A stretch of DNA of 64,000 nucleotides from Patescibacteria group bacterium (GTDB lineage Bacteria; Patescibacteriota; Patescibacteriia; Patescibacteriales; JAQTRU01): the NCBI GenBank assembly GCA_041645555.1, contig JBAZPX010000003.1, positions 599 to 64,598 on the forward strand, read 5' to 3'. A model generated the notes under the pieces. That model was not told the DNA's origin. It saw only the letters and a list, made by a program, of their open reading frames with translations, and did no database searches. A program made the position numbers and the translations under genes. Shown here one piece after another: positions 1,431-29,842 of the stretch. Positions within the stretch are counted from its first letter, which is position 1; each line of letters opens with the position of its first letter.

Positions 1431-4322
1431 ATGGCTTCTAAAAACGGTTCTTCTTTTTCAGAAGGAAAAATTAAAATTAAGGGGGCGCGGGTTCATAACT
1501 TAAAAAACATCAGTTTGGAAATTCCCCGCAATAAATTTGTGGTGATTACCGGTCTGTCCGGCTCGGGAAAATCAAGTTTAGCTTTTGATACGATTTACGC
1601 CGAGGGCCAGCGCCGTTATGTTGAATCTTTATCCGCTTACGCCCGGCAATTTATTGGTTTAATGGATAAGCCGGACGTGGATTCAATTGAAGGTTTGTCG
1701 CCGGCAATCTCCATTGACCAGAAATCCACTTCCCATAATCCCCGTTCTACGGTCGGCACGATTACGGAAATTTATGATTATTTGCGCCTGCTTTTTGCTA
1801 GGATCGGCGTGCCCCATTGCCCGAAGTGCGGCCGAAAAGTAAAACAGCATTCTTTGGACGAAATTTTTGACCAAGTGGGAAAAACTTATTTAGGAGAGGA
1901 AATAATAATCCTCGCTCCGATTGTTAAAGACCGGAAGGGGGAACACAAGAATATCGTGGAAAGAATCGTTAAGGCCGGTTTCAGCCGCGTCAGGTTTGAC
2001 GGCGCGATTTTTCCTTTGGAAGAAATAGAAGATATGATTGTGGACAAAAAGAAAAAACATACGGTGGACATCGTGATTGACCGCCTGACGGTTAGCAAAG
2101 ACAAAGAGGACATAGCCCGGCTGTCGGAAAGTTTAGAAAAAGCCTTGGACCTAGCCAACGGATTGGTAACCATAACTTCTCAAAATACAAAAAGTAATTC
2201 CCAGTTGCCGGAGGAAACCACTTATTCCCAACTTTTTGCCTGCCCGGATTGCGGCATTAGTCTGCCGGAACTGGAGCCGAGGAATTTTTCCTTTAACTCG
2301 CCTCACGGCGCCTGCCCGGAATGCTCGGGGCTAGGGACGAAACTGGAAATTGATCCGCAGTTAATAATAAATTCCAATTTAACTATTGCTCAAGGCGCGA
2401 TCAGGCCTTGGGCCCATAATACCGCTTCGGGGCAAACCTGGATGATGAGGATTTTGGGCACGGTCGCGGAAAAGCATGATTTTGATTTAAATACGCCCAT
2501 AAAAAATTTAACCAAAGACCAGCTTAACGTTGTCCTTTATGGCTCAGGCGATAAAAATTACAACGTGGAATATTCAAGCGACCGGTTTACCGGCGAGATG
2601 ACGACTGATTTTGAGGGCGTTATCCCAAATTTGGAAAGGCGTTATAAGCAAACCGAATCAGACTATATCAGGAAAGAAATTGAACAATATATGCGGGTCT
2701 TGGTCTGCCCGGCCTGCGGGGGTAAAAGGCTAAAACCGGAAATGCTGGCGGTTAAAATTGATAACCTGTCAATTCATGAAGTTTCTACCAAGGCGATAAA
2801 CGAAGCCAAGAGTTTTTTCGAGCAGCTGGAAAAATCCAAAAATTTATCAGCCCGGGACAAAAAAATTTCGGCGCAAATCGTAAAAGAAATCTGCGCCCGG
2901 CTTGATTTTCTTTCCAATGTCGGGCTTGATTATTTATCTTTAGACCGGGGCGCGATTACTTTGTCGGGCGGCGAATCCCAGCGCATCCGGCTGGCGACCC
3001 AAATCGGTTCGGCCTTAGTCGGGGTTTTATATATTTTAGACGAGCCTTCAATCGGCCTCCATCAGCGGGATAACAATAAGCTTATAAACACCTTAAAAAA
3101 ATTGCGGGATTTAGGCAATACCGTAATTGTGGTGGAACACGATGAAATGACAATGCTCGCGGCAGACCATATTGTTGATGTCGGCCCGGGCGCGGGAGAA
3201 CATGGCGGAAAAATTATTGCCCAGGGCACGCCTAAAGAGATAAAAGCGTCTGCCTCTTCTTTAACCGGCCAGTATTTAGCCGGCAAGAAATCAATTCCAG
3301 TGCCGGCGAAATATCGGGCGGGTAACGGCAAGAATTTAACAATTTTTGGTGCAACTGAACATAATTTAAAAAATATTGATATTGCCATTCCTTTAGGAAA
3401 ATTTGTGGCCATTACCGGCGTGTCTGGTTCAGGCAAGTCAACTTTAATGGACGATATTTTGGCCCGAGCTTTAAACCAGAAATTTTACCGGGCTAAAGCT
3501 GAACCTGGCCGGCATAAAAGAATTGAGGGCTGGCAACATATTGATAAAGTGATAAATATTGACCAGTCTCCCATCGGCCGCACACCCCGCTCCAACCCAG
3601 CCACTTACACCGGCGCGTTTACCCCAATTAGAGATTTATTCGCCTCTCTGCCCGAAGCCAAAATCAGAGGGTACAAAGCCGGACGTTTTTCTTTTAACGT
3701 GGTCGGCGGAAGATGCGAGGCCTGCGGCGGGGACGGGTTGGTAAAAATTGAAATGCAGTTTTTGTCTGACGTTTATGTGGAGTGCGAAGTCTGCCACGGC
3801 CAAAGATATAATAAAGAAGCTTTGGAAATTTACTATAAGGACAAAAATATTTCCGATGTTTTAAATATGACTGTGGAAGAAGCGATAAATTTTTTTAAGA
3901 ATATACCGGCGATTTATCAGAAACTGGCGACTTTAAATGAAGTGGGGTTAAGCTATATAAAATTAGGCCAGAGCGCCACGACTTTATCAGGCGGGGAAGC
4001 GCAAAGGGTAAAACTGGCAACGGAACTGTCCCGCCGGGCGACCGGGAAAACTTTATATATCCTGGATGAGCCGACTACGGGTTTGCATTTTGATGATATA
4101 AAAAGGCTGCTTGAGGTTTTAGGCCAATTAGCTGATAAAGGCAATACGGTTCTAGTTATTGAACATAATTTAGACGTGATAAAATCCGTGGACTGGGTTA
4201 TTGATTTAGGTCCGGAAGGCGGAGAAGCGGGCGGAGAAATCGTAGCCGCGGGCACGCCCCGGGAAGTGGCGAAAGTCAAAAAGAGTTATACGGGTCAGTA
4301 TTTGGCGAAAATAATAAAATAA
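1431..4322 (+). CDS. uvrA: excinuclease ABC subunit A (UvrA)
   Basis: 963-aa ORF with two ABC ATPase modules (Walker [10 protein letters not shown] and GVSGSGKST; LSGGE signatures) and Cys-cluster zinc fingers ([30 protein letters not shown]). Canonical UvrA layout. Confidence 0.97.
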
Positions 4323-4332
4323 AAAGATGTTT

Positions 4333-4364
4333 GCCCCCTTTCGAAAAGGGGGTTGGGGGATTAA
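4333..4364. repeat. left terminal inverted repeat of the DUF559 cassette; also a self-complementary hairpin that could terminate uvrA
   Basis: GCCCCCTTTCGAAAAGGGGGTTGGGGGATTAA. The reverse complement of 4787-4819 is ACCCCCTTTCGAAAAGGGGGCAAGGGGGATTAA. Confidence 0.7.
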
Positions 4365-4379
4365 TAAGCGCCAAGCGCT

Positions 4380-4778
4380 ATGTTTATAAAGTCAAACAAA
4401 TTTTTACCATATAATAAGGAGTTAAATAAAAAAGCAAAGCATTTAAGAAATGAAATGACGGCCGCTGAAAAGAAATTATGGTATGAATATTTGAGAGACC
4501 ATCAATTTCAGTTTCTAAGGCAGAGGCCGATTGATAAGTATATAGTTGATTTTTATTGTCCTAAACTAAGGTTAGTTATAGAAATTGACGGGGAAACTCA
4601 TCTCTCTAAAGAAGATAGAGAATATGATAAAAAAAGAACAAGGGCATTAGAAAGTTATGGGTTAAAAGTTTTGCGTTTTTGGAATGATGATGTTTTAACT
4701 GGAATTGAGATAGTTAGTGAAATAATAGAAAATGAAATAAAGAAATTAAAATTCATTTTGTCTTCTTCTGCAAATTAA
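4380..4778 (+). CDS. DUF559 / Vsr-like endonuclease-fold protein
   Basis: 132-aa ORF. The stretch DFYCPKLRLVIEIDGETH ... RFWNDDV matches the DUF559 family pattern as I remember it. Confidence 0.8.
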   Translation: MFIKSNKFLPYNKELNKKAKHLRNEMTAAEKKLWYEYLRDHQFQFLRQRPIDKYIVDFYCPKLRLVIEIDGETHLSKEDREYDKKRTRALESYGLKVLRFWNDDVLTGIEIVSEIIENEIKKLKFILSSSAN

Positions 4779-4786
4779 ATAATAAT

Positions 4787-4819
4787 TTAATCCCCCTTGC
4801 CCCCTTTTCGAAAGGGGGT
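4787..4819. repeat. right terminal inverted repeat of the DUF559 cassette, followed by a T-run
   Basis: TTAATCCCCCTTGCCCCCTTTTCGAAAGGGGGT. It mirrors 4333-4364 apart from a TT versus CAA difference. Confidence 0.7.
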
Positions 4820-4825
4820 ATTTTT

Positions 4826-4870
4826 AAATAAAAAAACAGGGACAGCGAATTGGTGAGATTCACTGTCCCT
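4826..4870 (-). terminator. intrinsic terminator at the 3' end of the GC-rich minus-strand unit
   Basis: On the minus strand, GGGACAG (4869-4863) and CTGTCCC (4845-4839) form a perfect 7-bp stem with a 17-nt loop, followed by TGTTTTTTTATTT. Confidence 0.7.
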
Positions 4871-5881
4871 TTACTGCAAGCGGAGTTTCCTCCCGATAAA
4901 ATGAGCTAGACCCATTATTCCCCAGTGCATGCTCCCGGTTGGATTATCCGTAGGATTGGAGCCGCGGGAGGTTGGATGGGGCGGCGGGGAGTATCGCGAA
5001 AGTTGCGTTCGCCGGAATTTCTCGGCGGCGATTCCCCGGAATGGTTCTAGTCGTGAGGTAAACTTCGCTGTCCTTTAAGGTGGACAAGTCCCTGTCTTTT
5101 CTGGTTGACAATTCCCCCGCGCTTTGGGCTTTGGTTTTTGTTCGTCGAGTCAGGAGGTCTACGACGCTCCTTCGGACGCTGTTGAGCCGCTTGCGCAGAT
5201 TGTTTTCACGCCTTTTGGGCGTTCGTTGATTTTTTTCTTATTGATTTTTCAAAGATCCAGCTCCTACAACGGATCGAGCCGTTGCGGTTGGCTGACGACT
5301 TCAGCAGGCTTTGTGGCCATGCTTCCCTCGTTTTTGGTGTGGGTGGTGGAGCGGAGGTTTTTCACCGCCGCGACGAATGATTTCCTGTTCTTAGAGGCGG
5401 ATCTCGCCGCTCCAGTAGCAGGCGATTATGACGAATCTGCGTACCACGCGATTGTCTCCTCGCTTTGGTTTTCCACCCCTATTCCCGTTGGCATCGTGCC
5501 CTCGCGGTTTTGGGGTGAAGTTGTTCTTCGATCTTTCCGGGCCGCTACCGTGATATCTCCCGGGGTTTTACCGGAGTTGCGTGGGAGCGGTCGCCGGCGA
5601 GATCAGATGACGGCGGTGTGACCGAGCGCCGTGGTGGCGGAGCTGACCGCGATCTTGTCCTTTTTCGGGCCGTTGGCCCTGGAGAGGGAATCGGTGTCGG
5701 GTTTGGGCGCTGCCCTGATCATGGAATGCCTCCGGCGTTGGGGGGATGGTTCAGACCCCGGTCTCCGATAATCAGAGACCGCTCTGCGGCTCTATTCTGT
5801 TACACCGCAATATTTTTTACTATTATTTTTCAACCAATATTTTTATTTTATACTTTTATATTTATTTGTCAAATAACACGA
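4839..5881 (-). ncRNA. candidate ~1-kb GC-rich structured non-coding RNA (or multi-micro-ORF transcript) of unknown family
   Basis: A GC-rich block bracketed on the minus strand by a consensus promoter and an intrinsic terminator. The track shows no minus-strand ORF of 60 aa or more. The plus-strand ORFs look spurious. No known RNA family motif recognised. Confidence 0.35.
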
Positions 5882-5887
5882 TTTAAC

Positions 5888-5916
5888 AATATATCATATC
5901 TTTTAAATATTGTCAA
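5888..5916 (-). promoter_or_regulatory. consensus sigma70-type promoter driving the GC-rich unit
   Basis: On the minus strand: TTGACA (5916-5911), 17-nt spacer ATATTTAAAAGATATGA, TATATT (5893-5888). Confidence 0.6.
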
Positions 5917-5966
5917 CGGTTAAAGAGTGAAATGGTTAATATTCGTTTAAAATTAGCTAAAAATTG

Positions 5967-6539
5967 TTATTTAATATCCTTCTCGTTAAATACTTGAGCA
6001 GTAAAAGTTTTTAGTTTAACATTAGGGTCGTTTTTATAGCAATCCGCGGGCAGTCCAGCTTTTTGGGAGCATAACTGGCCCAAGAATTCTTCTAAATCCC
6101 AGCCGGTTTCGGTCGCTACTTGGGGCAAGAATACGCCTCCACACCCTCCTTTTTCTACAATTACTCCGTGCTCGCTAAGTTTAATATTCTGCCAATTATC
6201 AATTTCTTTTGGCACAGACAAAACGCTTATTTCATAATCTAATTTATTTAATTCATTTTCTGCCACCGGGCTGAATCTATAATCCTCGCTGCAAGCCGCT
6301 ATAGCCATATCGCGCGCTACTTCCCAAAGAGGCTGGTCGGAAGGAATAATCTGGCCAATGCAGCCGCGTAGCTCTCCGGCTTTATGCAAAGTAACAAAAG
6401 CGCCCTCTTTCTTTTTCAGTCTCTCGTCTTTAATGTTAAATTCCGGAGTTTTACCTTCTCGCACATAACTTTCTACGGTTTGTCTGACAATATCCAATAA
6501 TTCTTTTTTTTGATTTTTATTTAATAGTTCCGAGCTCAT
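5967..6539 (-). CDS. AMMECR1 domain protein
   Basis: 190-aa ORF. GAFVTLHKAGELRGCIGQI is the characteristic AMMECR1 motif. Confidence 0.85.
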   Translation of the reverse strand: MSSELLNKNQKKELLDIVRQTVESYVREGKTPEFNIKDERLKKKEGAFVTLHKAGELRGCIGQIIPSDQPLWEVARDMAIAACSEDYRFSPVAENELNKLDYEISVLSVPKEIDNWQNIKLSEHGVIVEKGGCGGVFLPQVATETGWDLEEFLGQLCSQKAGLPADCYKNDPNVKLKTFTAQVFNEKDIK

Positions 6540-7345
6540 ATTTTTTTCAGAACATTTAAAATACTTTTATGAACCTGGCCGTTGCTGGCGGCTATGTCCC
6601 TGTTATCTAAGCTCCACCTTCGGCCGGAGAAATCCGTTACCTTTCCGCCGGCTTCTCTAACCAGTAATGCGCCGGCGGCTACGTCCCAGGGATTAGTTTC
6701 GGGAATGACTATTGTTTCCACCCGGCCGCAAGCGACATAAGCTAATTCTAAGGCGGCGCTGCCCAGTTGCCGGCAATCAAGGCCGTTTAGTTTTTGTTTG
6801 GTATAATATTTGATAGCTTTTTTTATAGCTTTGGTTGTGTGGCCGTGGCAGAAAGTATTTATAATTTTTCCTTTAGAAATTTTTGAGACTTTAATTTTTT
6901 TGTTATTTAAATAGGCGCCCTTATTTTTTTCCGCCCAGTATAATTCATTTAAAACCGGAATGAAAATTATGCCCAAGATAATTTCTTTATTGTAAGCCAA
7001 GGCAATGGAAATCGACCAAAGAGGATTACGCATGGAAAAATTAGTGGTGCCGTCTAGAGGGTCAATAATCCAGAGATAATCGGATTTATTTTTTGTCCAA
7101 CCGGCTTCTTCCGACAGTATCTGATGGGAGGGAAAACTTTTTTTTATGGCTTTAATTATAATTTTTTCCGCGTCTAGATCGGCTTTAGTTAAAATTTCAT
7201 GGCTAGATTTCAATTCTATTTTACTTCTGTCAAAATTGGCATATTCGCGCAGGAGAACCCTGCCTGCTTTTCGGGCGGCTTCTATGGCAATATTTTTTGT
7301 TTGGTCGTTCACCCCGTTAGAAATTTTGTTATTTTTTTCGCTCAT
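6536..7345 (-). CDS. inositol monophosphatase family protein (SuhB-like)
   Basis: 269-aa ORF with the WIIDPLDGTTNF metal-binding motif and a WDVAAG motif. Its first ~13 codons (MSEKNNKISNGVN) are encoded by the repeat element at 7307-7345. Confidence 0.9.
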   Translation of the reverse strand: MSEKNNKISNGVNDQTKNIAIEAARKAGRVLLREYANFDRSKIELKSSHEILTKADLDAEKIIIKAIKKSFPSHQILSEEAGWTKNKSDYLWIIDPLDGTTNFSMRNPLWSISIALAYNKEIILGIIFIPVLNELYWAEKNKGAYLNNKKIKVSKISKGKIINTFCHGHTTKAIKKAIKYYTKQKLNGLDCRQLGSAALELAYVACGRVETIVIPETNPWDVAAGALLVREAGGKVTDFSGRRWSLDNRDIAASNGQVHKSILNVLKKI

Positions 7346-7620: not shown

Positions 7621-8107
7621 TTAACTCCAATAATTTTAATTCCAATTTATTGTTTCTCGTATTCCAGGTAGCAAAAGTGGCTTTTCCCCACATTCCTCCT
7701 AATTCTCCGGGATTGACCAATTTAACTTCATCAATTTCTTCCAAAGCGGGTTTGTGGCTGTGGCCGTAAAAAACTATATCGCAATGGCCGGAATGTAAGA
7801 CTTTATCAATAAAATGGGCTTCGTGGCAAAGGCCGACAATTTGGCCATCCAATTTGAATCGGCCGGTTTTACCGAAATAGTTTATGTTTTTAAATTTTTT
7901 TAATTCTTTTTCCCCGTATAACTCAATATTACCTTTTACCAGATAAATGGAATTTTTAAATTTTTTTCCCAGAGTATGGAGAGTTTCGCTATTAGTAAGG
8001 TCGCCCGCGCAGATAATTTTTTTAATTTTATTTTTTTTACTCCAATCCAGGAATTTATTTAAATTAACTAAATTATCGTGGATATCGGCGATGATGGCAA
8101 TAAGCAT
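7616..8107 (-). CDS. metallophosphoesterase (YfcE / MJ0936 family)
   Basis: 163-aa ORF with the motifs IADIHDN, GDL, GNIE and GHSH in the canonical order. Confidence 0.85.
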   Translation of the reverse strand: MLIAIIADIHDNLVNLNKFLDWSKKNKIKKIICAGDLTNSETLHTLGKKFKNSIYLVKGNIELYGEKELKKFKNINYFGKTGRFKLDGQIVGLCHEAHFIDKVLHSGHCDIVFYGHSHKPALEEIDEVKLVNPGELGGMWGKATFATWNTRNNKLELKLLELI

Positions 8108-8111
8108 AAAT

Positions 8112-9251
8112 TTAATTGGCGAAAAAATAATAAACCTCGTAAATTAAACCGAAGATAAATAAAGAAGAAAGCAGGATTATGGTTAGCTTGTTTATTTTAT
8201 TTTTTATTATAGACGGTTGTTCTCTTTTCTTTTTAACTTTTAAGAGGAGCCAGATATATAAAAGGCCGATTAAGCCGCCGGTAAAAGCGCCGGCCAGGCT
8301 TACTATTTTCGTTAAGTCGCGCAGCCCCAATAAATAAAGGAGGAGCGGGATAAAACAGGCCAGGGCCCAGGCGATATTTTTATTAATTTTAAAATCCCAC
8401 CAAAAAGTTTCCCGGACAGACTGGGCCACAACCAAAAAAGAAGTGATAATTGCCAGTAGCCCCAAGATTAAGGCGAAGACAATAATGCCGTCGGATAAAA
8501 CCGAGCGCAGGCCGACTAAAGTGTCGGGAGAAGTATTATTCCCGGTAATCCCGACAATAACGAAAGTAAAGACCAGCATCATCGCCACCGGGATGAAAGT
8601 TCCCCAAAAAATCGCGCTTTTGATATTTTCTCTTTTTTGCGCCAGGAGTTTGCAGACTGAAGGGATAGCCGCGCTGCCGCCGACAGCGAAGAAAATCGGG
8701 CCGTAAGGCAGGAAAACATCAGGCCAGGAAACAAGCTTAAAGTTATCAAAGTTAATATAGCCCCAGCCATGCCAGGAAAGCAGGCCGACTATTAAGATTA
8801 ACAAGCCGGTCATGGCTAATTCCATAGAAGCAATTAATTTTATGCCGGAAAGGACGATAAAGGCCTGTAAAAAGAAGAGAATCAAAGAGTAAATAAAAAT
8901 GTTTCCGCCGAAAACCGGATTTAATAATTCATGGAGAAAAATCCCGCCAACAATAATATAAGCGAGCAGGGCGCCATAGTCGCCGACCAGGCCGATGATA
9001 AGAGAAATGACTTTCCCCTTTTTACTAATATACTTTTCCGCATAACCGGGCAGCCGGTGTTTTTCCTCGGTCGATAAAATTATTTCCGCATAAATTTTAT
9101 GGAGAAAATACTGGACGGCGCCCAAAAGGGGGAGATAAACAAAAAGTAAAATAATGCCGGCCTTGTTAATGACAAAAGGAATAGAAAACATACCGACGCC
9201 GATAATGGTGCCGGCCAAAGTGGCGACAGCGTGAAAATAGTTTTTACTCAT
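8112..9251 (-). CDS. amino acid permease-like polytopic membrane transporter
   Basis: 379-aa ORF with roughly 11 hydrophobic segments. The N-terminus resembles aromatic/hydroxy amino acid permease family members. Confidence 0.65.
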   Translation of the reverse strand: MSKNYFHAVATLAGTIIGVGMFSIPFVINKAGIILLFVYLPLLGAVQYFLHKIYAEIILSTEEKHRLPGYAEKYISKKGKVISLIIGLVGDYGALLAYIIVGGIFLHELLNPVFGGNIFIYSLILFFLQAFIVLSGIKLIASMELAMTGLLILIVGLLSWHGWGYINFDNFKLVSWPDVFLPYGPIFFAVGGSAAIPSVCKLLAQKRENIKSAIFWGTFIPVAMMLVFTFVIVGITGNNTSPDTLVGLRSVLSDGIIVFALILGLLAIITSFLVVAQSVRETFWWDFKINKNIAWALACFIPLLLYLLGLRDLTKIVSLAGAFTGGLIGLLYIWLLLKVKKKREQPSIIKNKINKLTIILLSSLFIFGLIYEVYYFFAN

Positions 9252-10680: not shown

Positions 10681-11250
10681 TCATTTTCTCATTTTTATCT
10701 CGTAATTTATTTGTTCTATCTTCCTTAAATTGCCTTTAGCTTGGTCGTATTTAGTGCGTAGGTAGCCGGTCATGTCAAAGATTATCAATTGGTCCATAAT
10801 TTCATTCAGGGTGTTTTTTATTTTTTCCACTTCAGAAAATTTTCCGGCCGCCGCCTGGTTAACGGCGTAGCGGACTAATTCGCCGGTCGTATCGCAAATT
10901 CCGCCCAAATAGCTCTCAAAGCTTAAATTTACTTCTTTGATTTTATCAATTTTTTTGCTGGTAATTAAGAAATAAAACATTTTTGCTTCGGCATATTCTT
11001 CCGCTCCGGCCCGATAGGACCCTTCTTCGTTAATTCTTTTCCAACCGAAATTCTTTTCTAATTTTTGGAAAATTTTTTCTATGGCCGCGAGATTCTCTTC
11101 CGCTTGTTTAATATCTCCCCGGTGCAGAGAAAAAATTACTCTTTTGGAATCATGCAAGGCAATATTGGCTAGGCTTATAATTTGCCGGCGCTGGCTATTT
11201 TGCTCGTCATGGTCCTTTTTTAATTTCTCAATGAATTTTTTGTTTATCAT
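10681..11250 (-). CDS. translin-family-like protein
   Basis: 189-aa all-helical ORF. YLGGICDTTGELVR resembles the translin Y..G..D..GEL motif. Assignment is from memory only. Confidence 0.45.
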   Translation of the reverse strand: MINKKFIEKLKKDHDEQNSQRRQIISLANIALHDSKRVIFSLHRGDIKQAEENLAAIEKIFQKLEKNFGWKRINEEGSYRAGAEEYAEAKMFYFLITSKKIDKIKEVNLSFESYLGGICDTTGELVRYAVNQAAAGKFSEVEKIKNTLNEIMDQLIIFDMTGYLRTKYDQAKGNLRKIEQINYEIKMRK

Positions 11251-14962: not shown

Positions 14963-15025
14963 GTCCTTTGACAGACGAATAACGTATTTTTGGATAAATC
15001 ACACTAAACCGAAGGGAGATTGGAA

Positions 15026-18000
15026 ATGTTAATGCATTTCTACTCAAGAATCAGTCCCACCGAAGAGCTCTGCTATAACGTAGAAGTTGACGGCGCTTTT
15101 TCTCGTCGTCAGATTAAAAAGTTAAAGAGTTTCTTCAGGGAAAAAGGCACGGAGCATATTTTCTCCGCCAGCCGCCTAAGAGGCGACGTGGCGGAGGTGG
15201 GACCTCACCCGCAGATGCGGACAAATTTTTGTTCGCAGGCCATTGAGCTCTTGCATGACTGCGGATTGTTCAAAATTAAAATTGTGGAGGTATCACGGAG
15301 AATCGTAGTCCCGGCCGGTGTTGACCGCGACTCGTTTGTGGCGGATTTGTATGATCCGATGCGGGAACGTATTTACTATGAACCTTTGCAAAGTTTTGTG
15401 TCTAACATCGTTCCGCCTCCGGTAATAACTGTACCCCTATTGGGTGAAGGTATGGAGGCGATGGCCCGGGCTAACAAAGAATATAAACTCGGGTTTGATT
15501 CGCAGTTTCAAGAACATTTCTTCAATTTGTTTGTGAATTACCTCAAACGCAATCCGACTAACGCCGAACTTATTCAGTTAGCGGCAATGTGCTCAAACCA
15601 TTCGTTTCACACCTTATTCGGAGCAGTGGTGAGTATCGACGGCCAACGGATGGCGCACACCTTGATGGAGCTTATCAAAGAGCCCTGGCGCCGGAATCCT
15701 GGCAACAGTGTCGTTGCTTTTCATGACAATGCTAGTGCAATTAGGGGAGCTATGGCGCGCATATTGCAGCCGGAAAATCCTGGGCAACCTAGCCGGATGA
15801 TTTTTCAGGAAGCTTTATGGCACATCTCCACAACCGTGGAAACGCATTGTTACCCCACGCTCTGGTGCCCCTGGCCAGGAGCGCAAACCGGTATTGGTGG
15901 CTGTTTGCGCGACGGACTGGCTATTGGTCGCGGTGGTGATCATCGCCATGCCATTGCCGGATTCTACACGGGCAACTTATTTATCGATGATTACCCCATG
16001 CCCTGGGAAATAGGAGCGCCAATGTTTCCTTCAAGGGTAATGGCGTCTCCGCTTCGGATTATCAAAGACGCGACTTGGGGAACTTGGGCCTATGGCAACC
16101 AGTATGGTGTTCCGGTAACTCAGGGAGTCGCCCGGACGTTTGGCATGATTTTCCCCAGCGGAGAACATTACGAGTATTACAAGCCAATTATGATGGCCGG
16201 ACTTCATGGCGGTGTTCGCGATGAGCATGCTGCCAAAGGCAAAGCCAGCAAGGGATTGACAATCGTTGGAATCGGCGGACCAGGATACCGGATTGGTTAT
16301 TTCGGCGGTCCTGGTTCAAGCGAGATAACCGATGAAGCAAAGGAAGTTTCTGATCGTAATGCTGTACAACGCGGCGACTCTCTAATGGGTCAGGTAACCT
16401 GGCGGGTTATTCGGGCCTGTACCGAACTCGGCTCCAGAAATCCGATTATTTCAATCCATGACCAGGGCGCGGTCGGACCTTGCGGGGTTCTTACCGAACT
16501 CATCGAGAAGTCTGGCGGACGCATCAGCATCCGCAAGATCCATTTGGGTGATTCGACTTTGTCGTTTGTGGAGATATGGGTTTGCGAATACCAGGAAAGA
16601 TACGGTCTTCTTATCCATCCGGATGATCTTGATCTCTTTATCTCCATCTGCGACTATGAAGGTTGCCCGGTTGAGATTTTGGGCGAAGTCACAGGCGACG
16701 GCAATATTGTCGTTTATGACGAACTCGATGGTTCAACACCCATTGATTTTCCAATCGAGGCCGCGCGGGCCGGATTACCGCAAAAGGTTATTACCGATAA
16801 GGCTCCGGCTTATTTGGGCGGTCCGATTACTATTCCTGGAAACCTGACGCTGTCCGAAGCTCTTGACTGGGTAATGAAATTTCCGCATGTCGGGAGCAAG
16901 GACTGGCTCGTAGACCGGGTAGACACTACGGTCGGCGGTCTGGTTGTCCAAAACCAGCGTTGCGGTCCGCATCGCTTGCCATTATCCAATGTGGCAGTGT
17001 CGGCTTTAGACTTTTTGGGCAAAATCGGAAGCGTTACGGCTTTGGGCGAATGTCCGCCGAAGATGATGCTTAATCCTCGGGCCGGCGCGCGTATGGCGGT
17101 AGCGGAAATGCTTACTAATCTTGCAGCCGCTCGAATTACCAAACGTGAGGATATCAGGGCGTCTGTGAATTGGATGTGGCCGGCAAAAGGCATCCCGGGC
17201 GGCGTTGCCAAGCTTTATTATGCTATGGAAGCGTTGACCGAGTTTATGATGGCTTTAGGAATTGCCTGCGACGGCGGTAAAGATTCTACATCTTTGGCCG
17301 CTCTTATCGCCAAGATGCTTATCAAATCCCCGGAAACCTTAGTGATTACCGGGTATGCGATGGTGCCGGATTTCCGAGAAGTCGCCACGCCGAATATTAA
17401 GTCGCCGGGTCAGAGCCGATTGCTTTATATTGATTTTGGCGGCGGCAAATACCGGCTGGGCGGATCGGCTTTCCTGCAATATCTAAAACAACTTGGCGAG
17501 GAGTGTCCGGACATTGAAGACAGAGATCTGTTTGTCCGCGCCTGGGAAGCAATTCAGAGACTTCATGATATGGGCAAACTCTTATCGCTTCACGATCGCA
17601 GTTGCGGCGGGCTCTTGATTACTATTCTTGAGATGCTTTTCGCCGGCGATTGTGGGGCATCAGTTAGTCTTAAGGGCGCCGATATCTGGGGCAAGATGTT
17701 TGCGGAAGAAGCCGGGTTTGTTTTGGAAATTCATGAAGATGATCTCCCGGACGTGCTGGCGTTGTTTGAAAAATGCGATGTGCCGGTAGTTGAAATCGGC
17801 CGGACAAAGGTTGAGAAAACCGTTAAGGTCGCTTTCAACAACGAAATCGTTCTGGCCGGATCAGTTCCGGAACTGCGGAGCGCTCATCGGGAAACAAGCC
17901 ACCAGATTGACCGGCTGCAAATCAACCCGGTTTGCGCAGACCAAGCCAAGCAAAATTTGCTTGATCCCGGAATCCCGTCCCTGGAACTTACTTTCACTCC

Positions 18001-18832
18001 CAGACCAACACCCCGGGAAATTTTAGAAGGAGGATTAAAGCCGCGGGTGGCGGTTTTGCGCAACAAGGGAACGAATGGAGACCGGGAAATGATTGCCGCT
18101 TTCAAGGCAGTCGGCTTCGAGGTTTACGACGTGCACATGAAAGCTCTGATTACCGGGCAGATAACCCTTGATTTCTTCCAGGGCATTGTTTTCGCCGGCG
18201 GATTTTCCTTTGCCGATATTTTCGGCGCTGGCAAGGGTTGGGCGATGCAGGTTCGGGAATGCCTGGCCGGGCAACTCAAAAAATTCATGGCTAGGCCCAA
18301 TACCTGGATTCTCGGGGTCTGCAATGGTTGTCAGGCTGGCGCGCTCTTGGGCTTAGCGCCATTCGAGAAGCTTGACCGTAAACGGCAGCCGCTTTTCCTC
18401 AGGAATACGTCGAGAGCATTTGAATCTCGATCAGTCGAAGTCGGGATACTGAAAAGCCCTTCGATCATGTTCACGGATATGGCCGGCTCGCGTCTTACTA
18501 TTCCGGTAGCGCATGGAGAAGGACGGATGTGGTTCCCGGATGAGGGAGCGATCCGCGAAGTGGCGGAAAATTATCTCGCTACTATGGCGTTCGTTGACAA
18601 CTCTGGCAGCCCGACCATGGATTATCCCCTTAATCCGAACGGTTCGGTTTATGGCTGGACTGGCCTCTGTGATCCTACGGGCCGGTTTAATCTTATGATG
18701 CCGCATCCGGAACGGATCTTTCTTCTGCAACAATGGCCGTGGCTGCCGCAAGGATGGGATGACCTTCTGGCCTCTCCGTGGATTCGGCTATTCCAGAATT
18801 TTTACGCGTTCTCGGTCGCGCATTGTGATTAA
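15026..18832 (+). CDS. purL: phosphoribosylformylglycinamidine (FGAM) synthase, large single-chain PurL type, divergent
   Basis: About 1268 aa from the ATG at 15026 (GGGAGA 6 nt upstream). It is collinear with E. coli PurL as I remember it. The C-terminal glutaminase motifs are intact: GVCNGCQ, HGEG, MMPHPER. Several synthetase-domain motifs are altered (SNHSFHTLF, ETHCYPT). Confidence 0.85.
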   Translation: MLMHFYSRISPTEELCYNVEVDGAFSRRQIKKLKSFFREKGTEHIFSASRLRGDVAEVGPHPQMRTNFCSQAIELLHDCGLFKIKIVEVSRRIVVPAGVDRDSFVADLYDPMRERIYYEPLQSFVSNIVPPPVITVPLLGEGMEAMARANKEYKLGFDSQFQEHFFNLFVNYLKRNPTNAELIQLAAMCSNHSFHTLFGAVVSIDGQRMAHTLMELIKEPWRRNPGNSVVAFHDNASAIRGAMARILQPENPGQPSRMIFQEALWHISTTVETHCYPTLWCPWPGAQTGIGGCLRDGLAIGRGGDHRHAIAGFYTGNLFIDDYPMPWEIGAPMFPSRVMASPLRIIKDATWGTWAYGNQYGVPVTQGVARTFGMIFPSGEHYEYYKPIMMAGLHGGVRDEHAAKGKASKGLTIVGIGGPGYRIGYFGGPGSSEITDEAKEVSDRNAVQRGDSLMGQVTWRVIRACTELGSRNPIISIHDQGAVGPCGVLTELIEKSGGRISIRKIHLGDSTLSFVEIWVCEYQERYGLLIHPDDLDLFISICDYEGCPVEILGEVTGDGNIVVYDELDGSTPIDFPIEAARAGLPQKVITDKAPAYLGGPITIPGNLTLSEALDWVMKFPHVGSKDWLVDRVDTTVGGLVVQNQRCGPHRLPLSNVAVSALDFLGKIGSVTALGECPPKMMLNPRAGARMAVAEMLTNLAAARITKREDIRASVNWMWPAKGIPGGVAKLYYAMEALTEFMMALGIACDGGKDSTSLAALIAKMLIKSPETLVITGYAMVPDFREVATPNIKSPGQSRLLYIDFGGGKYRLGGSAFLQYLKQLGEECPDIEDRDLFVRAWEAIQRLHDMGKLLSLHDRSCGGLLITILEMLFAGDCGASVSLKGADIWGKMFAEEAGFVLEIHEDDLPDVLALFEKCDVPVVEIGRTKVEKTVKVAFNNEIVLAGSVPELRSAHRETSHQIDRLQINPVCADQAKQNLLDPGIPSLELTFTPRPTPREILEGGLKPRVAVLRNKGTNGDREMIAAFKAVGFEVYDVHMKALITGQITLDFFQGIVFAGGFSFADIFGAGKGWAMQVRECLAGQLKKFMARPNTWILGVCNGCQAGALLGLAPFEKLDRKRQPLFLRNTSRAFESRSVEVGILKSPSIMFTDMAGSRLTIPVAHGEGRMWFPDEGAIREVAENYLATMAFVDNSGSPTMDYPLNPNGSVYGWTGLCDPTGRFNLMMPHPERIFLLQQWPWLPQGWDDLLASPWIRLFQNFYAFSVAHCD

Positions 18833-27040: not shown

Positions 27041-28426
27041 ATGACAAAAAATGAGTTAATGGAGAAAATTGTGTCTTTAACTAAGAGGCGGGGTTTTGTT
27101 TTTCCCAGCTCGGAAATTTACGGGGGCCTGGCCGCGGTTTACGATTACGGGCCTTACGGCGTTGAGCTGGCGAACAATATCAAGCGGGCCTGGTGGCGCG
27201 AAATGGTGCAACTGCGGGAAGATATCGTCGGCTTGGATTCAGCCATTTTTATGCACCCGAAAATTTGGGAAGCCAGCGGGCACGTTGCCGGTTTTGCCGA
27301 TCCGCTAGTCGAATGCAAGAAATGCCATATTCGCCTAAGGCTTGACCATCTTTTGGAAGATATCGGCGTTCAGGCGGATGAAAAAATGTCTGAACAGGAA
27401 ATTGACCTTGCATTTAAAGAAAATAAAGCGAAAATCAAATGCCAAAGCTGCGGCGGCAAAGAATTTACGGATGTTAAGAAATTTAATTTATTGGTTAAAT
27501 CAAATTTGGGAAATTTTACTGAAGATTGGACAAAAGAACCGACTTATTTAAGGGGCGAGACCTGCCAGGGAATTTATGTTAATTATAAAAATGTCTTGGA
27601 CTCAAGCCGGGTAAAAATACCTTTTGGCATCGCTCAGATCGGCAAGGCTTTCCGCAATGAAATTACCGCCCGGCAATTTATTTTCCGCACGCGCGAATTT
27701 GAACAGATGGAGATGCAGTATTTTACCAGTCCTCAAGAAGATATGAAGGAATATAAAAAACTTAAAGATTATAGGTGGAATTTTTACTTATCTTTGGGGA
27801 TTGATAAAAAAAATTTGAAATGGATGAAACACAAAAATTTAGTTTTTTACGCCAAGGAAGCTTATGATATCGAATATAATTTTCCCTTCGGCTTTAAAGA
27901 GCTTGAGGGTGTTCACGCTAGAGGAAATTATGATTTAACCCAGCATCAAAAATTTTCCGGGAAAGACCTTTCTTATGTTGATCCGGCAACTCAAGAAAAA
28001 TATATCCCGCATATCATAGAATCGTCTGCCGGCGTGGGAAGAATTTTTTTAGCGGTTTTAACCGAGGCCTATTGCGAAGAGAAGATTGGCGATGAAACCA
28101 GAACCGTTTTAAAGCTTGATAAGAAACTTTCGCCTATAAAAGTGGCGGTTTTCCCGTTAATGAGAAACAAACCAGAATTAGTGAATAAAGCCAAGGATAT
28201 TTTTAATGATTTGAAGATGGAATTTATGTGCGAGTTTGATGATAACGGTAATGTGGGGAAGCGCTATCGCCGGCAGGACGAAATCGGCACGCCTTATTGC
28301 ATTACCGTAGACTTTGACAGTCTGGAAAAAGACGACGTAACCGTGCGCGACCGCGATAGTATGAAGCAGGTGAGGGTAAAGATAAAAGAATTGAGGGAGT
28401 ATTTTAAGGAGAGGCTGGAGAAATAG
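27041..28426 (+). CDS. glyQS: glycine--tRNA ligase (dimeric GlyQS type)
   Basis: 461-aa ORF. GLAAVYDYGPYGVELANNIKRAWW, class II motifs (FRNEITARQFIFRTREFEQMEMQYF) and an anticodon-binding C-terminus. Confidence 0.95.
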   Translation: MTKNELMEKIVSLTKRRGFVFPSSEIYGGLAAVYDYGPYGVELANNIKRAWWREMVQLREDIVGLDSAIFMHPKIWEASGHVAGFADPLVECKKCHIRLRLDHLLEDIGVQADEKMSEQEIDLAFKENKAKIKCQSCGGKEFTDVKKFNLLVKSNLGNFTEDWTKEPTYLRGETCQGIYVNYKNVLDSSRVKIPFGIAQIGKAFRNEITARQFIFRTREFEQMEMQYFTSPQEDMKEYKKLKDYRWNFYLSLGIDKKNLKWMKHKNLVFYAKEAYDIEYNFPFGFKELEGVHARGNYDLTQHQKFSGKDLSYVDPATQEKYIPHIIESSAGVGRIFLAVLTEAYCEEKIGDETRTVLKLDKKLSPIKVAVFPLMRNKPELVNKAKDIFNDLKMEFMCEFDDNGNVGKRYRRQDEIGTPYCITVDFDSLEKDDVTVRDRDSMKQVRVKIKELREYFKERLEK

Positions 28427-28775: not shown

Positions 28776-28804
28776 ATTATAAGACGTATAAGTCAAGTTG
28801 TCAA
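28776..28804 (-). promoter_or_regulatory. perfect-consensus promoter
   Basis: On the minus strand: TTGACA (28804-28799), 17-nt spacer, TATAAT (28781-28776). Confidence 0.6.
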
Positions 28805-28834
28805 AAACGAAAGGTAATTCTATAATTAAAATAT

Positions 28835-28984: not shown

Positions 28985-29842
28985 ATGCCTGCCAAGCTTT
29001 ATAAAATTTTACTGGTTTTTGGCATAGTGGCGGTTTTATTAGCGGTCCCGATTTTCGTTTTTTCTTACAATCCGTCTCGAGAACTGGAAGTTAGTTTTTT
29101 GGACGTTGGCCAGGGCGACGCGATTTTAATTAAATCGCCGATGGGGCAAAATATTTTAATTGACGGCGGACCGGACAGTAAAGTCATAGAAGGGCTGGGG
29201 AAAAATTTGCCTTTTTGGGATAAGCGGATTGATTTAATGGTTTTAACCCATCCCCACGATGACCATGTGACCGGCTTAATTGAGGTGATAGAACGATATA
29301 GCGTAAAAAAGATTGTTTATACCGGCGTTATCCACGATGCGCCGAACTATCTGGAATGGCTGGGAAAAATAAGAGAAAGAAAAATACCCCTCGTAATTAT
29401 TGACCGGCCGCAAAAGATTGTTTTGGGCGATGATTGCTATTTAGAAATAATATCCCCGCGCAAAAGTTTATTGGGCCGGGAAACAGATAATCTAAATAAT
29501 AGCTCTATAGTGGCTAAGTTAGTTTATGGCCAGACGAAATTCTTGCTGGCGGGCGATGCCGAGATAGAAGTGGAAAAAGAATTGCTCTCCGGTGGCGGTG
29601 ATTTGTCCGCCCAAGTTTTAAAAGCCGGCCATCATAGCTCTGATACTTCTTCTAGCGAGGATTTTTTAGAAGCGGTTAGCCCCCAAATAGCCGTAATCCA
29701 GGTTGGCAAAGACAATGATTTCGGCCACCCCAATTTAAGAATTTTAAAAAGACTGGAAAGAATTGGGGCCAAAGTTTTTAGAACCGATGTTGACGAAACC
29801 ATAAAGCTGGTTAGCGATGGAGGAAAAATAAGTGAGAAATAA
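28985..29842 (+). CDS. ComEC/Rec2-type metallo-beta-lactamase domain protein with N-terminal TM anchor
   Basis: 285-aa ORF. SFLDVGQGDAILIKSP, ILIDGG and LTHPHDDHVTGL are typical of the ComEC MBL domain. The channel domain is absent. Confidence 0.85.
   Translation: MPAKLYKILLVFGIVAVLLAVPIFVFSYNPSRELEVSFLDVGQGDAILIKSPMGQNILIDGGPDSKVIEGLGKNLPFWDKRIDLMVLTHPHDDHVTGLIEVIERYSVKKIVYTGVIHDAPNYLEWLGKIRERKIPLVIIDRPQKIVLGDDCYLEIISPRKSLLGRETDNLNNSSIVAKLVYGQTKFLLAGDAEIEVEKELLSGGGDLSAQVLKAGHHSSDTSSSEDFLEAVSPQIAVIQVGKDNDFGHPNLRILKRLERIGAKVFRTDVDETIKLVSDGGKISEK

Follow-up and report, generated by a model that had tools for sequence, protein, structure and literature searches.

In the 64,000-nucleotide stretch of DNA analyzed here (the window), which comes from a Patescibacteria (CPR) genome, the minus-strand unit at 4830-5916 is flanked by AMMECR1 and uvrA. 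It is probably a gene with its own transcription that specifies a large, highly structured RNA from a clade-restricted family that has not been described before. The best reading of the element is that of a new lineage-restricted RNA that would be dual-function or act as a scaffold. The original prediction, a promoter-to-terminator large structured RNA outside the known classes, is thereby supported, with conserved transcription signals, covariation and negative Rfam searches all pointing in this direction. Its description of the unit as lacking a gene stands only in part: no long ORF is conserved on either strand, but a 39-codon ORF and its ribosome-binding site are kept in relatives. Since both are conserved, a large structured RNA carrying small ORFs fits better than a gene-free one. 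The features of the unit are listed in Table 1.

Table 1. Predicted features of the element, with window coordinates.
Feature	Coordinates	Strand	Basis
Predicted RNA, ~1.0 kb from P2	4830..5837	-	Bounded by conserved promoters and terminator
Promoter P1, TTGACA-17 nt-TATATT, TG-extended -10	5888..5916	-	Sequence and conservation
Promoter P2, TTGACA-16 nt-TAAAAT, 44 nt downstream of P1	5845..5872	-	Sequence and conservation
5′ hairpin 1, GCGG...CCGC, type-A 5′ end	5786..5808	-	Common to L003, L018, L033
Hairpin 2, GGUCUC...GAGACC	5760..5780	-	Conservation
sORF1 with Shine-Dalgarno	5603..5733	-	GGAGG 5733-5729, ATG 5722, stop 5603
Long helix GACCGCUCCC.../...GGUAGCGGCC around small hairpin CUCCGG/CCGGGAG	5539..5592	-	Conservation
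Type-A module helix UUCACCCC/GGGGUGGA	5472..5519	-	Covariation
Extra copy of ribosome-binding-site/short-ORF/hairpin module	5391..5465	-	Weak similarity to 5264-5338
Central module, ribosome-binding site and sORF2 into hairpin M1	5257..5338	-	Covariation and conservation
Short hairpin ACGCC-AAAAG-GGCGU, ahead of 3′ domain	5208..5222	-	Position conserved
Helix Ha, CUGCGC 5198-5193 / GCGCGG 5122-5117	5117..5198	-	Covariation
3′ core, three-way junction	4907..5049	-	Covariation and single-sequence minimum-energy fold
3′ core, Hb	5049-5047/4909-4907	-	
3′ core, Hc	5044-5040/4916-4912	-	
3′ core, Hd and He	5038-5029/4996-4985	-	
3′ core, Hf	4980-4978/4922-4920	-	
3′ core, Hg	4970-4966/4936-4932	-	
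GGAG-GAAA-CUCC hairpin, GNRA-type tetraloop	4882..4893	-	Covariation
Intrinsic terminator, hairpin 4870-4838 and U tract	4830..4870	-	Sequence and compensatory changes

Conserved transcription signals bound a GC-rich unit

The G+C content of the unit (4830-5800) is 0.559, the top 1-kb value of the window, in which 1-kb segments have a mean of 0.41 (s.d. 0.05) and reach 0.536 at most outside the unit. The spot counts reported earlier, 44 of 60 at 5581-5640 and 14 of 60 at 8101-8160, were borne out. The composition of the predicted RNA is A 0.29, C 0.30, G 0.25 and U 0.16. Its 5′ end was placed from P2, about 7 nt past the -10 element; a transcript starting from P1 would begin near 5880.

The promoter originally proposed, TTGACA-17-TATATT at 5916-5888 (P1), was reproduced, with a TG extension added. 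Its -35 hexamer is invariant and its spacing is kept in 9 of 9 homologous loci. A second promoter, P2 (5872-5845), had been missed in the original prediction; its TTGACA and 16-nt spacer are likewise kept in all homologues. Near-consensus promoters, defined by at most one mismatch, are found at 9 sites in the 64-kb window, compared with 2.9 in shuffled sequences, and the tandem pair makes up two of the nine. The twin-promoter pattern is unique to the element: neither the rest of the window nor the loci contain another instance.

The terminator hairpin and tail claimed for the other end of the unit were also found, as a 13-bp stem at 4870-4838 followed by GTTTTTTT. In 7 sequences, 7 of 11 terminator pairs are changed on both sides, and a terminator is present in all complete copies. 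That is, the unit has a predicted promoter and terminator of its own, both kept in relatives, as is generally expected of an independent RNA gene.

Compensatory changes support a 3′ three-way junction

The covariation check proposed with the original prediction was run on alignments of the homologues; covariation is present in the 3′ domain, the central hairpin and the terminator. Pairing over the 47 pairs of the 3′ domain amounts to 91.7%, compared with 43-52% in slid controls, and 17 pairs are changed on both sides, compared with 4-8 in these controls; 10 of the 17 lie outside the terminator. The observed values were reached by 0 of 500 shuffles, a control that can be beaten by relatedness alone. 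Compensatory changes thus exceed both slid and shuffled controls in a small sample of 7-8 sequences, and because these are related and come from one narrow clade, the counts are partly non-independent. Two measures favor the minus strand as the sense strand. G-U cells outnumber A-C cells in the pairing (29 vs. 13). In folding energy, the 3′ 372 nt surpass shuffled sequences on the minus strand (z-score -4.19, 0 of 100 shuffles), whereas on the plus strand they do not (z-score -1.81). Selection on the 3′ domain is indicated by its aligned identity of 0.57-0.78, compared with 0.44-0.62 at four-fold degenerate positions in the neighboring gene. No ORF is conserved across the 370 nt in which conservation and covariation are strongest.

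The 3′ core is a defined unit of about 140 nt that is kept in every complete copy, and its helices reappear in the single-sequence minimum-energy fold. Its loop motif is CUCCAAUCCUAC. Conserved loop sequences of the RNA include CUCCAUWCCUAC and YNNGAU. A covariance model, R1, scored 97-140 bits on 7 copies, with no other match in 272 kb. Ahead of the core, the conserved block AGCGGCUCAACAGCGUCCGA lies inside helix Ha, together with a single-stranded, A/C-rich stretch (5143-5123 in the window) that is present in 8 of 8 copies; in L003, Ha takes the compensatory form CUGCAC/GUGCAG. The GGAG/CUCC hairpin is replaced by GAAG/CUUC in L003, L002 and L015. At the position of the hairpin at 5208-5222, every copy has a hairpin, of different sequence. 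We also considered a long-range interaction in which the central hairpin's tail would pair with the 3′-core loop; by eye it is inconsistently kept, and the local helix is better supported.

Ribosome-binding sites and small ORFs in the 5′ and central modules

Toward the 5′ end, the GGTCTC/GAGACC hairpin claimed at 5760-5780 (hairpin 2) was reproduced, with 10 pairs conserved across 4 sequences, one of these pairs via a change on both sides. The position of 5′ hairpin 1 is taken in other copies by a different hairpin, CGGUUUCC...GGAAACCG. The outer long helix (5539-5592 in the window) is found in all copies with changed sequence, for example GCCCUUGCCC/GGGAAGGGGC in L014, and 4 of the 8 pairs in the type-A helix at 5472-5519 are changed on both sides (4 sequences).

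Between these structures lies sORF1, the 39-codon ORF that had been noticed at 5722-5603 with GGAGG 6 nt upstream and that was recovered here; the predicted product in the window copy is 39 aa, MIRAAPKPDTDSLSRANGPKKDKIAVSSATTALGHTAVI. The ORF encodes 38 aa in L003, 48 in L033, 37 in L018, 19 in L015 and 28 in L034, is cut to 5 codons in L002, and is missing from L014 and L026. Its Shine-Dalgarno sequence, 6-8 nt ahead of the ATG in copies with the ORF, is conserved in 6 copies. The N-terminus is conserved (MxRAAPNRK) and its codons differ synonymously (AGG/CGA for Arg, GCA/GCT/GCG for Ala, CCC/CCG for Pro); the C-terminus is hypervariable, with a GF(E/D)NP stretch common to L003 and L033. The GC3 of sORF1 is 0.87, compared with 0.37-0.48 in neighboring genes, so that in composition the ORF resembles the RNA and not the codon usage of the genome. 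From this pattern of conservation, sORF1 is probably translated.

The central module carries a second ribosome-binding site, GAGGGA, and an 18-codon ORF, sORF2 (ATG at 5320, end at 5264), which runs into hairpin M1 (5295-5279 paired with 5272-5257). In 8 sequences, the 14 pairs of M1 are 90.2% paired, compared with 29-49% in slid controls, and 8 of the 14 are changed on both sides. A Shine-Dalgarno sequence and start codon of the sORF2 type occur in 8 of 9 modules, but copies do not maintain the frame through the hairpin. The similar module at 5391-5465 (GAGGAG, GTG at 5447, 18 codons) aligns locally to 5264-5338 with a score of 32. Shuffled sequences give 19 +/- 3.4 with a maximum of 37, and an internal duplication of the sORF2/hairpin module is thus weakly supported.

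The element in related genomes

Eight sequence-distinct homologues of 0.6-1.0 kb lie at the same site downstream of AMMECR1 in related metagenome genomes. The RNA of the window is homologous to units of this size in L002, L003, L014, L015, L026, L033 and L018. A ninth homologue, L034, is a distant, AT-rich version at the same site, in which the promoters and sORF1 are retained and the 3′ core is not; both promoters are kept in all nine. With model R1, the 3′ core was not found in the more distant loci L004, L005 and L034. Of the 12 loci picked up by scanning metagenomes with a conserved 20-mer, only 2 are true homologues. Within the window, neither self-BLAST, nor a covariance-model search, nor the twin-promoter pattern revealed further copies.

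The element is absent from loci with 66-67% AMMECR1 identity, and sister lineages with the same gene order are without it, as in the outgroup L038. On the short contig L032, AMMECR1 is followed by an insertion sequence, with no sign of the element. Judged from this distribution, the predicted RNA family is, as known so far, confined to one small Patescibacteria clade, and the element is dispensable on evolutionary timescales. Because AMMECR1 lies beside uvrA without the element in L038, its adjacency is synteny and not evidence of a link. A connection to the AmmeMemoRadiSam system or a modified-peptide precursor was rejected, as neither Memo nor the radical SAM enzyme is adjacent to the unit.

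Unit length among the copies ranges from 611 to 1012 nt, with entire modules present or absent, and L014 and L026, at about 610 nt, are naturally minimal forms. Between L017 and L018 the adjacent gene differs by 14%, yet a stretch of about 135 nt of the RNA is identical by inspection, with different 5′ modules. Five metagenome contigs break off within the element or at its edge, as strain variation would lead one to expect. The element is thus a modular mosaic, with 5′ modules that strains acquire, lose and recombine.

Searches for protein genes and known RNA classes

The original claim that the minus strand contains no ORF of at least 60 aa holds, the longest being 55 aa (4944-5111). The two plus-strand ORFs, 5124-5621 and 5618-5923, do exist. 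Among 5.8 billion proteins, however, the plus-strand ORF of 165 aa matches itself alone, and it has no match in Pfam or NCBIfam. The 8 homologues contain no conserved long ORF on either strand; an intact protein gene at such loci had been named as the finding that would speak against a structured RNA. Translated similarity between copies is limited to short patches spread over all frames of both strands, which is the pattern that nucleotide conservation gives. With no relative carrying an intact gene and no protein or family match, we rejected the reading as a pseudogene or an antisense gene. No toxin-like hydrophobic peptide is encoded in the element.

The proposed comparison with Rfam was made by cmscan with 4227 Rfam 15 models, which include RNase P, tmRNA, SRP, 6S, group I and II introns, OLE, GOLLD, ROOL, HEARO, raiA and small ribozymes. 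No model matched in the element at its gathering score. At E <= 10 there was no match in the body of the element; the only matches were chance-level ones to the terminators and one of 36 nt, at 15.9 bits against a cutoff of 77.3 bits. Four other copies gave nothing at E <= 1. ARAGORN, used to look for a tmRNA or tRNA-like domain, found 0 genes in 4000-7000.

No repeats, integrase or reverse transcriptase adjoin the element. We rejected a diversity-generating retroelement or retron, as the window's ten largest ORFs outside the unit all belong to housekeeping genes, with no reverse transcriptase among them, and a phage association, as two conserved motifs had 0 exact matches in 2.9 million viral contigs. 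A role as a sponge is unconvincing: GGA (CsrA-type), Shine-Dalgarno and anti-Shine-Dalgarno motifs are at most about 2 s.d. above dinucleotide shuffles, and anti-Shine-Dalgarno-like CCUCC motifs are not enriched.

Discussion

We propose that the two tandem, near-consensus sigma-70-type promoters would drive strong transcription that ends at the intrinsic terminator. The RNA is predicted to fold into a chain of hairpins and the conserved 3′ three-way-junction core. The functional part may consist of this core, the conserved single-stranded loops and the A/C-rich stretch, with the core serving, as RNA, to scaffold or regulate a putative partner. Ribosomes would probably load at sORF1 and at the second conserved site, whose short ORF enters the central hairpin; such loading would make the RNA dual-function, as RNAIII and SgrS are. 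The 5′ modules would be dispensable add-ons, exchanged by recombination between strains. More tentatively, the element may represent a new class of large ornate Patescibacteria RNA, that is, a ribonucleoprotein or RNA-only assembly built on the three-way-junction core that engages ribosomes via mini-ORFs, and whose 5′ modules and sORF1 tail have been shaped by conflict or host interaction in these episymbiotic bacteria; we consider this possible, but would not bet on it.

A rather unlikely explanation is that the unit is the mRNA of a small protein, in which sORF1, and perhaps sORF2, is functional and the other 85% is a structured untranslated region that stabilizes the message or controls its translation. 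The Shine-Dalgarno sequence and start at constant spacing, conserved for sORF1 in 6 copies and for sORF2 in 8 of 9 modules, agree with it, as do the synonymous changes at the sORF1 N-terminus, which suggest constraint at the protein level, and the shared GF(E/D)NP of L003 and L033. Besides the promoters, moreover, sORF1 is the sole part recognizable in the distant L034. Yet sORF1 is absent from L014 and L026 and reduced to 5 codons in L002, whereas the 3′ core is in every complete copy; sORF2 peptides fall out of frame across the hairpin, no ORF is conserved in the best-covarying 370 nt, and the GC3 of sORF1 departs from that of its neighbors. Module swapping could instead reflect an arms race rather than relaxed constraint, at a rapidly diversifying conflict locus that encodes a defense, competition or host-interaction RNA or a selfish element. 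The variation in length by whole modules, the stretch shared by L017 and L018 behind different 5′ modules, the five contigs that end in or at the element, and the hypervariable C-terminus of sORF1 are in line with this. We nevertheless consider it unlikely, because the position is fixed between the same two flanking genes in all copies, the element is single in the window and has no mobility genes or repeats beside it, its conserved motifs lack exact viral matches, and it encodes no toxin-like, hydrophobic peptide.

Divergence of a known class (RNase P, tmRNA, SRP, 6S, group I/II intron, OLE, GOLLD, ROOL, HEARO or raiA) past recognition is very improbable. Size and degree of structure are within the range of several of these classes, and Patescibacteria often carry divergent RNAs and introns (PMC13011429), but Rfam 15 and ARAGORN were negative. 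Since sister lineages of the same gene order lack the element, it does not appear to be an essential housekeeping RNA, and since it interrupts no gene, it is not an intron. Barely credible is a decayed pseudogene or a functionless relic of GC-rich DNA of foreign origin: G+C lies well above the genome average and the long plus-strand ORFs are open, but no homologous locus has an intact gene, the 165-aa ORF is without relatives or family, translated similarity is patchy in all frames of both strands, and promoters, terminator and base pairs are under selection.

As a structured RNA gene, the element invites comparison with several known systems. In GOLLD, the 3′ half is conserved and the 5′ half variable. 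Like OLE, GOLLD and ROOL, the element stands alone as a gene, exceeds 600 nt, and combines many covariation-supported helices with a conserved core and a variable part; here it is GC-rich in an AT-rich genome. It differs from them in that it matches none of their Rfam models, belongs to a different host phylum, is not prophage-associated, is known from one narrow clade, and has conserved ribosome-binding sites and a small ORF (for cryo-EM structures of these large ornate RNAs, see PMC12286853).

With RNAIII and hld, SgrS and SgrT, or SR1 and SR1P, the element shares a long structured RNA, its own predicted promoter and terminator, and a small ORF. Dual-function RNAs of this kind are structured, have their own promoter and terminator, and encode a peptide that is dispensable in some relatives. 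In the element, conservation extends over the Shine-Dalgarno sequence, the start and, with synonymous changes, the N-terminal codons of sORF1, and the ORF is absent in two copies. In contrast to these RNAs, the element has no sequence or structure homology to them, is 2-5 times longer than most, and its Shine-Dalgarno/anti-Shine-Dalgarno-like motifs are not clearly enriched. The element also resembles tmRNA as a structured RNA with a short internal reading frame, but it has no tRNA-like domain, as indicated by ARAGORN and Rfam, and its ORFs have a Shine-Dalgarno sequence and a start codon, whereas the tmRNA tag frame has neither.

The M-x-R-A-A-P start of sORF1 resembles the R-A-G-P and R-A-P-P of the arrest peptides SecM, ApdA and ApdP, a resemblance that is a lead only. 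The described arrest cores, RAPP, RGPP, RAGP and RAPG, do not include RAAP and tolerate few substitutions (PMC12992588). Known motifs are C-terminal in a longer nascent chain upstream of a regulated gene, whereas the RAAP of sORF1 is at residues 3-6 with no same-strand gene downstream; the literature does not support RAAP as an arrest motif.

Structured bacterial RNAs of more than 500 nt are rare, and RNase P, tmRNA, group II introns, OLE, GOLLD and ROOL have each revealed unusual biochemistry. Patescibacteria are ultrasmall symbionts with very compact genomes, in which a 1-kb non-protein gene with two strong predicted promoters is costly to keep. We found no literature report of such a large RNA from this group. 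What is new here, as far as sequence comparison goes, is an RNA family without detectable relatives and of narrow distribution, not a mechanism. The locus also raises the question of how a hairpin and a ribosome-binding site, both conserved, are reconciled, and it is practical for structure work, with a core of ~140 nt, a minimal version of ~610 nt (L014, L026), and natural module-swap variants.

Composition, promoters and terminator of the unit

The unit has a G+C content of 0.559, the highest 1-kb value in the window (mean 0.41, sd 0.05). The features from which a large structured RNA had originally been predicted were recovered in the sequence, namely spot counts of 44 and 14 G+C per 60 nucleotides, the TTGACA-17-TATATT promoter (P1), a terminator made up of a hairpin and a T run, the GGTCTC/GAGACC hairpin, and a 39-codon ORF with GGAGG 6 nt upstream. 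No minus-strand ORF reaches 60 aa, as had been stated; the longest is 55 aa. Absent from that prediction was a second promoter, TTGACA-16-TAAAAT (P2), 44 nt downstream of the first.

Near-consensus promoter sites (at most one mismatch) number 9 in the 64-kb window, versus 2.9 in shuffles, and the tandem pair accounts for two of them. All nine loci compared have the two -35 hexamers unchanged, at the same two spacings and with the same 44-nt offset; no other instance of the twin pattern turned up in the window or in the loci fetched. A hairpin and T run end every complete copy; 7 of the 11 terminator pairs are changed on both sides among seven sequences. No part of the locus is better conserved than the promoters, which argues for selection on expression.

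All remaining short stretches of high G+C in the window (16801-17100, 18201, 27101, 53101, 58201) fall within long ORFs, the first two in a PurL-like gene and 27101 in one for a class II tRNA synthetase. No second element of the kind is among them. Elsewhere, between an ORF ending at 28426 and another starting at 28985, the minus strand carries a perfect-consensus TTGACA-17-TATAAT that overlaps a near-consensus plus-strand promoter; the two may form a divergent strong-promoter pair.

Positions of features in the window and in related loci (L handles, AMMECR1-containing loci of relatives)
Feature	Sequence	Position	Strand	Remark
uvrA	window	1431-4322	+	
DUF559 endonuclease-like gene	window	4380-4778	+	between uvrA and element
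Palindromic motif GGGGCAAGGGGGATTAAA / CCCCCTTGCCCC	window	4786-4826		
Palindromic motif	L002	7545-7590		
Palindromic motif	L015	about 6590-6690		
RNA element	window	4830-5916	-	between DUF559 gene and AMMECR1
3' domain	window	4830-5201	-	3' 370 nt
Central hairpin	window	5295-5257	-	
sORF1	window	5722-5603	-	Shine-Dalgarno upstream of ATG
P2	window	5872-5845	-	
P1	window	5916-5888	-	
AMMECR1	window	5967-6539	-	same strand as element
Inositol monophosphatase gene	window		-	beyond AMMECR1, same strand as element
AMMECR1 and overlapping gene	window	5967-7345	-	
ORF syntenic with Translin-family gene	window	10681-11250	-	
PurL-like gene	window	15020-18832		
Candidate divergent promoters	window	28798-28833	both	
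Translin-family gene	L012	609-1181		
Insertion sequence	L032	1164-2111		
83-aa ORF	L034	4961-5212		within unit
Radical SAM-Memo-AMMECR1 operon	L037	951-3555		
AMMECR1/uvrA spacer	L038	3560-3884		

Homologues and distribution

The search for homologues was anchored on AMMECR1 in species-representative genomes and public assemblies, together with one motif scan of metagenome contigs; it made 7-8 sequences available, from one clade. The closest relatives of this AMMECR1 are in metagenome-assembled genomes labelled Patescibacteria group bacterium. The element lies directly downstream of AMMECR1, between it and convergent uvrA, in L003, L002, L014 (=L012), L015 (=L016), L026 (=L024, L017), L018 (=L019) and L033. 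Predicted RNA lengths are 611-1012 nt. L034 (=L035) carries a much-diverged, AT-rich version, and a hydrophobic 83-aa ORF in that unit matches no known family and does not resemble the window element.

Lineages at 66-67% AMMECR1 identity lack the element; one of them, L038, has the same gene order with a 320-nt repeat-filled spacer instead, and in L036 and L037 other genes occupy the position. Thus, the family is narrow and evolutionarily dispensable.

The L038 spacer, from a Falkowbacteria relative, consists of (CACGAAAA)n and four copies of a repeat of about 30 nt. In L032, an insertion sequence with an rve-family transposase lies just downstream of AMMECR1 and follows a conserved block, GGCTAATTTTAAATAAATATTAG, that elsewhere lies upstream of P1; the element was not seen on this 2.7-kb contig.

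A conserved RNA fold

The search for covariation proposed with the original prediction revealed compensatory changes above controls in the 3' domain and the central hairpin. RNAalifold on seven sequences gives 47 pairs in ten helices for the 3' domain, with 91.7% of cells paired versus 43-52% after sliding the partners by 1-3 columns. Changes on both sides occur in 17 pairs (4-8 in slid controls), 10 of them outside the terminator; these counts are partly non-independent because the sequences are few and related. In 500 shuffles, pairing, compensatory counts and covariation score all stayed below the values observed. From 5' to 3', the domain comprises a long-range helix (CUGCGC/GCGCRG) surrounding a conserved 20-mer and an A/C-rich single strand, a three-way junction (helices Hb-Hg), a GGAG-GAAA-CUCC hairpin, and the terminator. 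Folding the window sequence by itself gives a minimum-energy structure with the same junction.

Pairing in the central hairpin reaches 90.2% across eight sequences (29-49% in slid controls), and 8 of its 14 pairs are compensatory, again with partly non-independent counts. Additional hairpins recur at fixed positions with sequences unrelated between copies, and the window-like (type-A) 5' module has conserved helices in four sequences. Fold z-scores are -4.19 for the sense strand and -1.81 for the antisense strand; G-U cells number 29 versus 13 A-C cells. The loop CUCCAUWCCUAC is conserved in 6 of 7 copies, and the central hairpin has a YNNGAU loop.

No family in Rfam 15 matches the element, ARAGORN was negative on it, exact matches of two conserved motifs were not found in viral contigs, and no large structured RNA from Patescibacteria came up in our literature search. 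The large ornate RNAs OLE, GOLLD and ROOL (PMC12286853) come nearest in size and architecture, and dual-function RNAs such as RNAIII in combining structure with a small ORF. The evidence does not support placing the element in any of these families.

Coding capacity and interpretation

The description of a unit without a gene holds in that no long ORF is common to the copies on either strand, but the unit is not ORF-free: it carries sORF1 and a second ribosome-binding site. Translated matches between copies are short and scattered over every frame of both strands, the pattern that nucleotide conservation would give. Neither the 165-aa nor the 101-aa plus-strand ORF has a Pfam or NCBIfam match, and a search of 5.8 billion proteins with the former matched only its own gene call.

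A Shine-Dalgarno sequence precedes the ATG of sORF1 by 6-8 nt, with varying spacer sequence, in the window, L003, L033, L018, L015 and L034 (39, 38, 48, 37, 19 and 28 codons, respectively). The N-termini align as M-x-R-A-A-P-N-R-K, with Arg encoded by AGG in three copies and CGA in four, and with Ala and Pro codons varying at third positions; since these codons differ synonymously, they indicate protein-level rather than RNA-level constraint. As a lead only, RAAP resembles the RAPP/RAGP arrest motifs. Where present, sORF1 is probably translated. The C-terminal halves are highly variable. On the limiting side, only 5 codons of sORF1 remain in L002, L014 and L026 lack it, and its GC3 is 0.87, versus 0.37-0.48 in neighbouring genes. 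Upstream of the central hairpin, 8 of 9 modules have the second ribosome-binding site (GAGGAGG or GAGGAAA, 5-8 nt before ATG or GTG), whose ORFs (sORF2, 16-30 codons) extend into the hairpin; because the frame across it is not maintained, the sORF2 peptide is probably not the conserved entity. As judged from these alignments, the conserved common denominator of the family is the RNA. We regard a unit that is mainly a small-protein mRNA as unlikely and a genuine structured-RNA gene as highly probable; for an RNA-level function with a translated sORF1, the chances seem about even.

For such an RNA, strong transcription would begin at P1 and P2, and the transcript would fold co-transcriptionally into hairpins and the three-way-junction core. 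The two conserved loops and the A/C-rich stretch could serve as contact surfaces for a putative partner. Ribosomes would start translation both at sORF1 and at the central ribosome-binding site, where it would compete with hairpin formation.

Modularity and gene neighbourhood

Two types of 5' end occur, one with GCGG...CCGC and GGUCUC...GAGACC, the other with CGGUUUCC...GGAAACCG; a block of about 450 nt with sORF1 is present in some copies and absent in others. L017 and L018, 86% identical in AMMECR1 DNA, share an RNA stretch of about 135 nt, identical by inspection, behind differing 5' modules. Five independent metagenome contigs (L012, L013, L017, L018, L019) stop within or right at the element, which fits recombination between co-occurring strains and strain-level mosaicism breaking assemblies there. 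The element (identity 0.57-0.78) evolves faster than adjacent coding DNA (about 0.80) and more slowly than the adjacent gene's four-fold degenerate sites (0.44-0.62).

The DUF559 gene, with a very-short-patch-repair-like endonuclease fold and a G+C content of 0.28, lies between terminator and uvrA in the window's lineage only, and looks like a recent insertion specific to it. Directly after the terminator, several loci carry a GC-rich palindromic motif, a perfect long palindrome in L002; this motif may be either a short repeat element or a terminator that works in both directions. In the more distant relative L037, AMMECR1 belongs to the canonical operon with Memo and the radical SAM enzyme; AMMECR1 of the window's lineage has no Memo or radical SAM neighbours and overlaps the inositol monophosphatase gene instead. 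The conserved gene row of relatives includes a member of the Translin family (PF01997), nucleic-acid-binding proteins that are rare in bacteria, and a window ORF is assigned by position as its syntenic counterpart.
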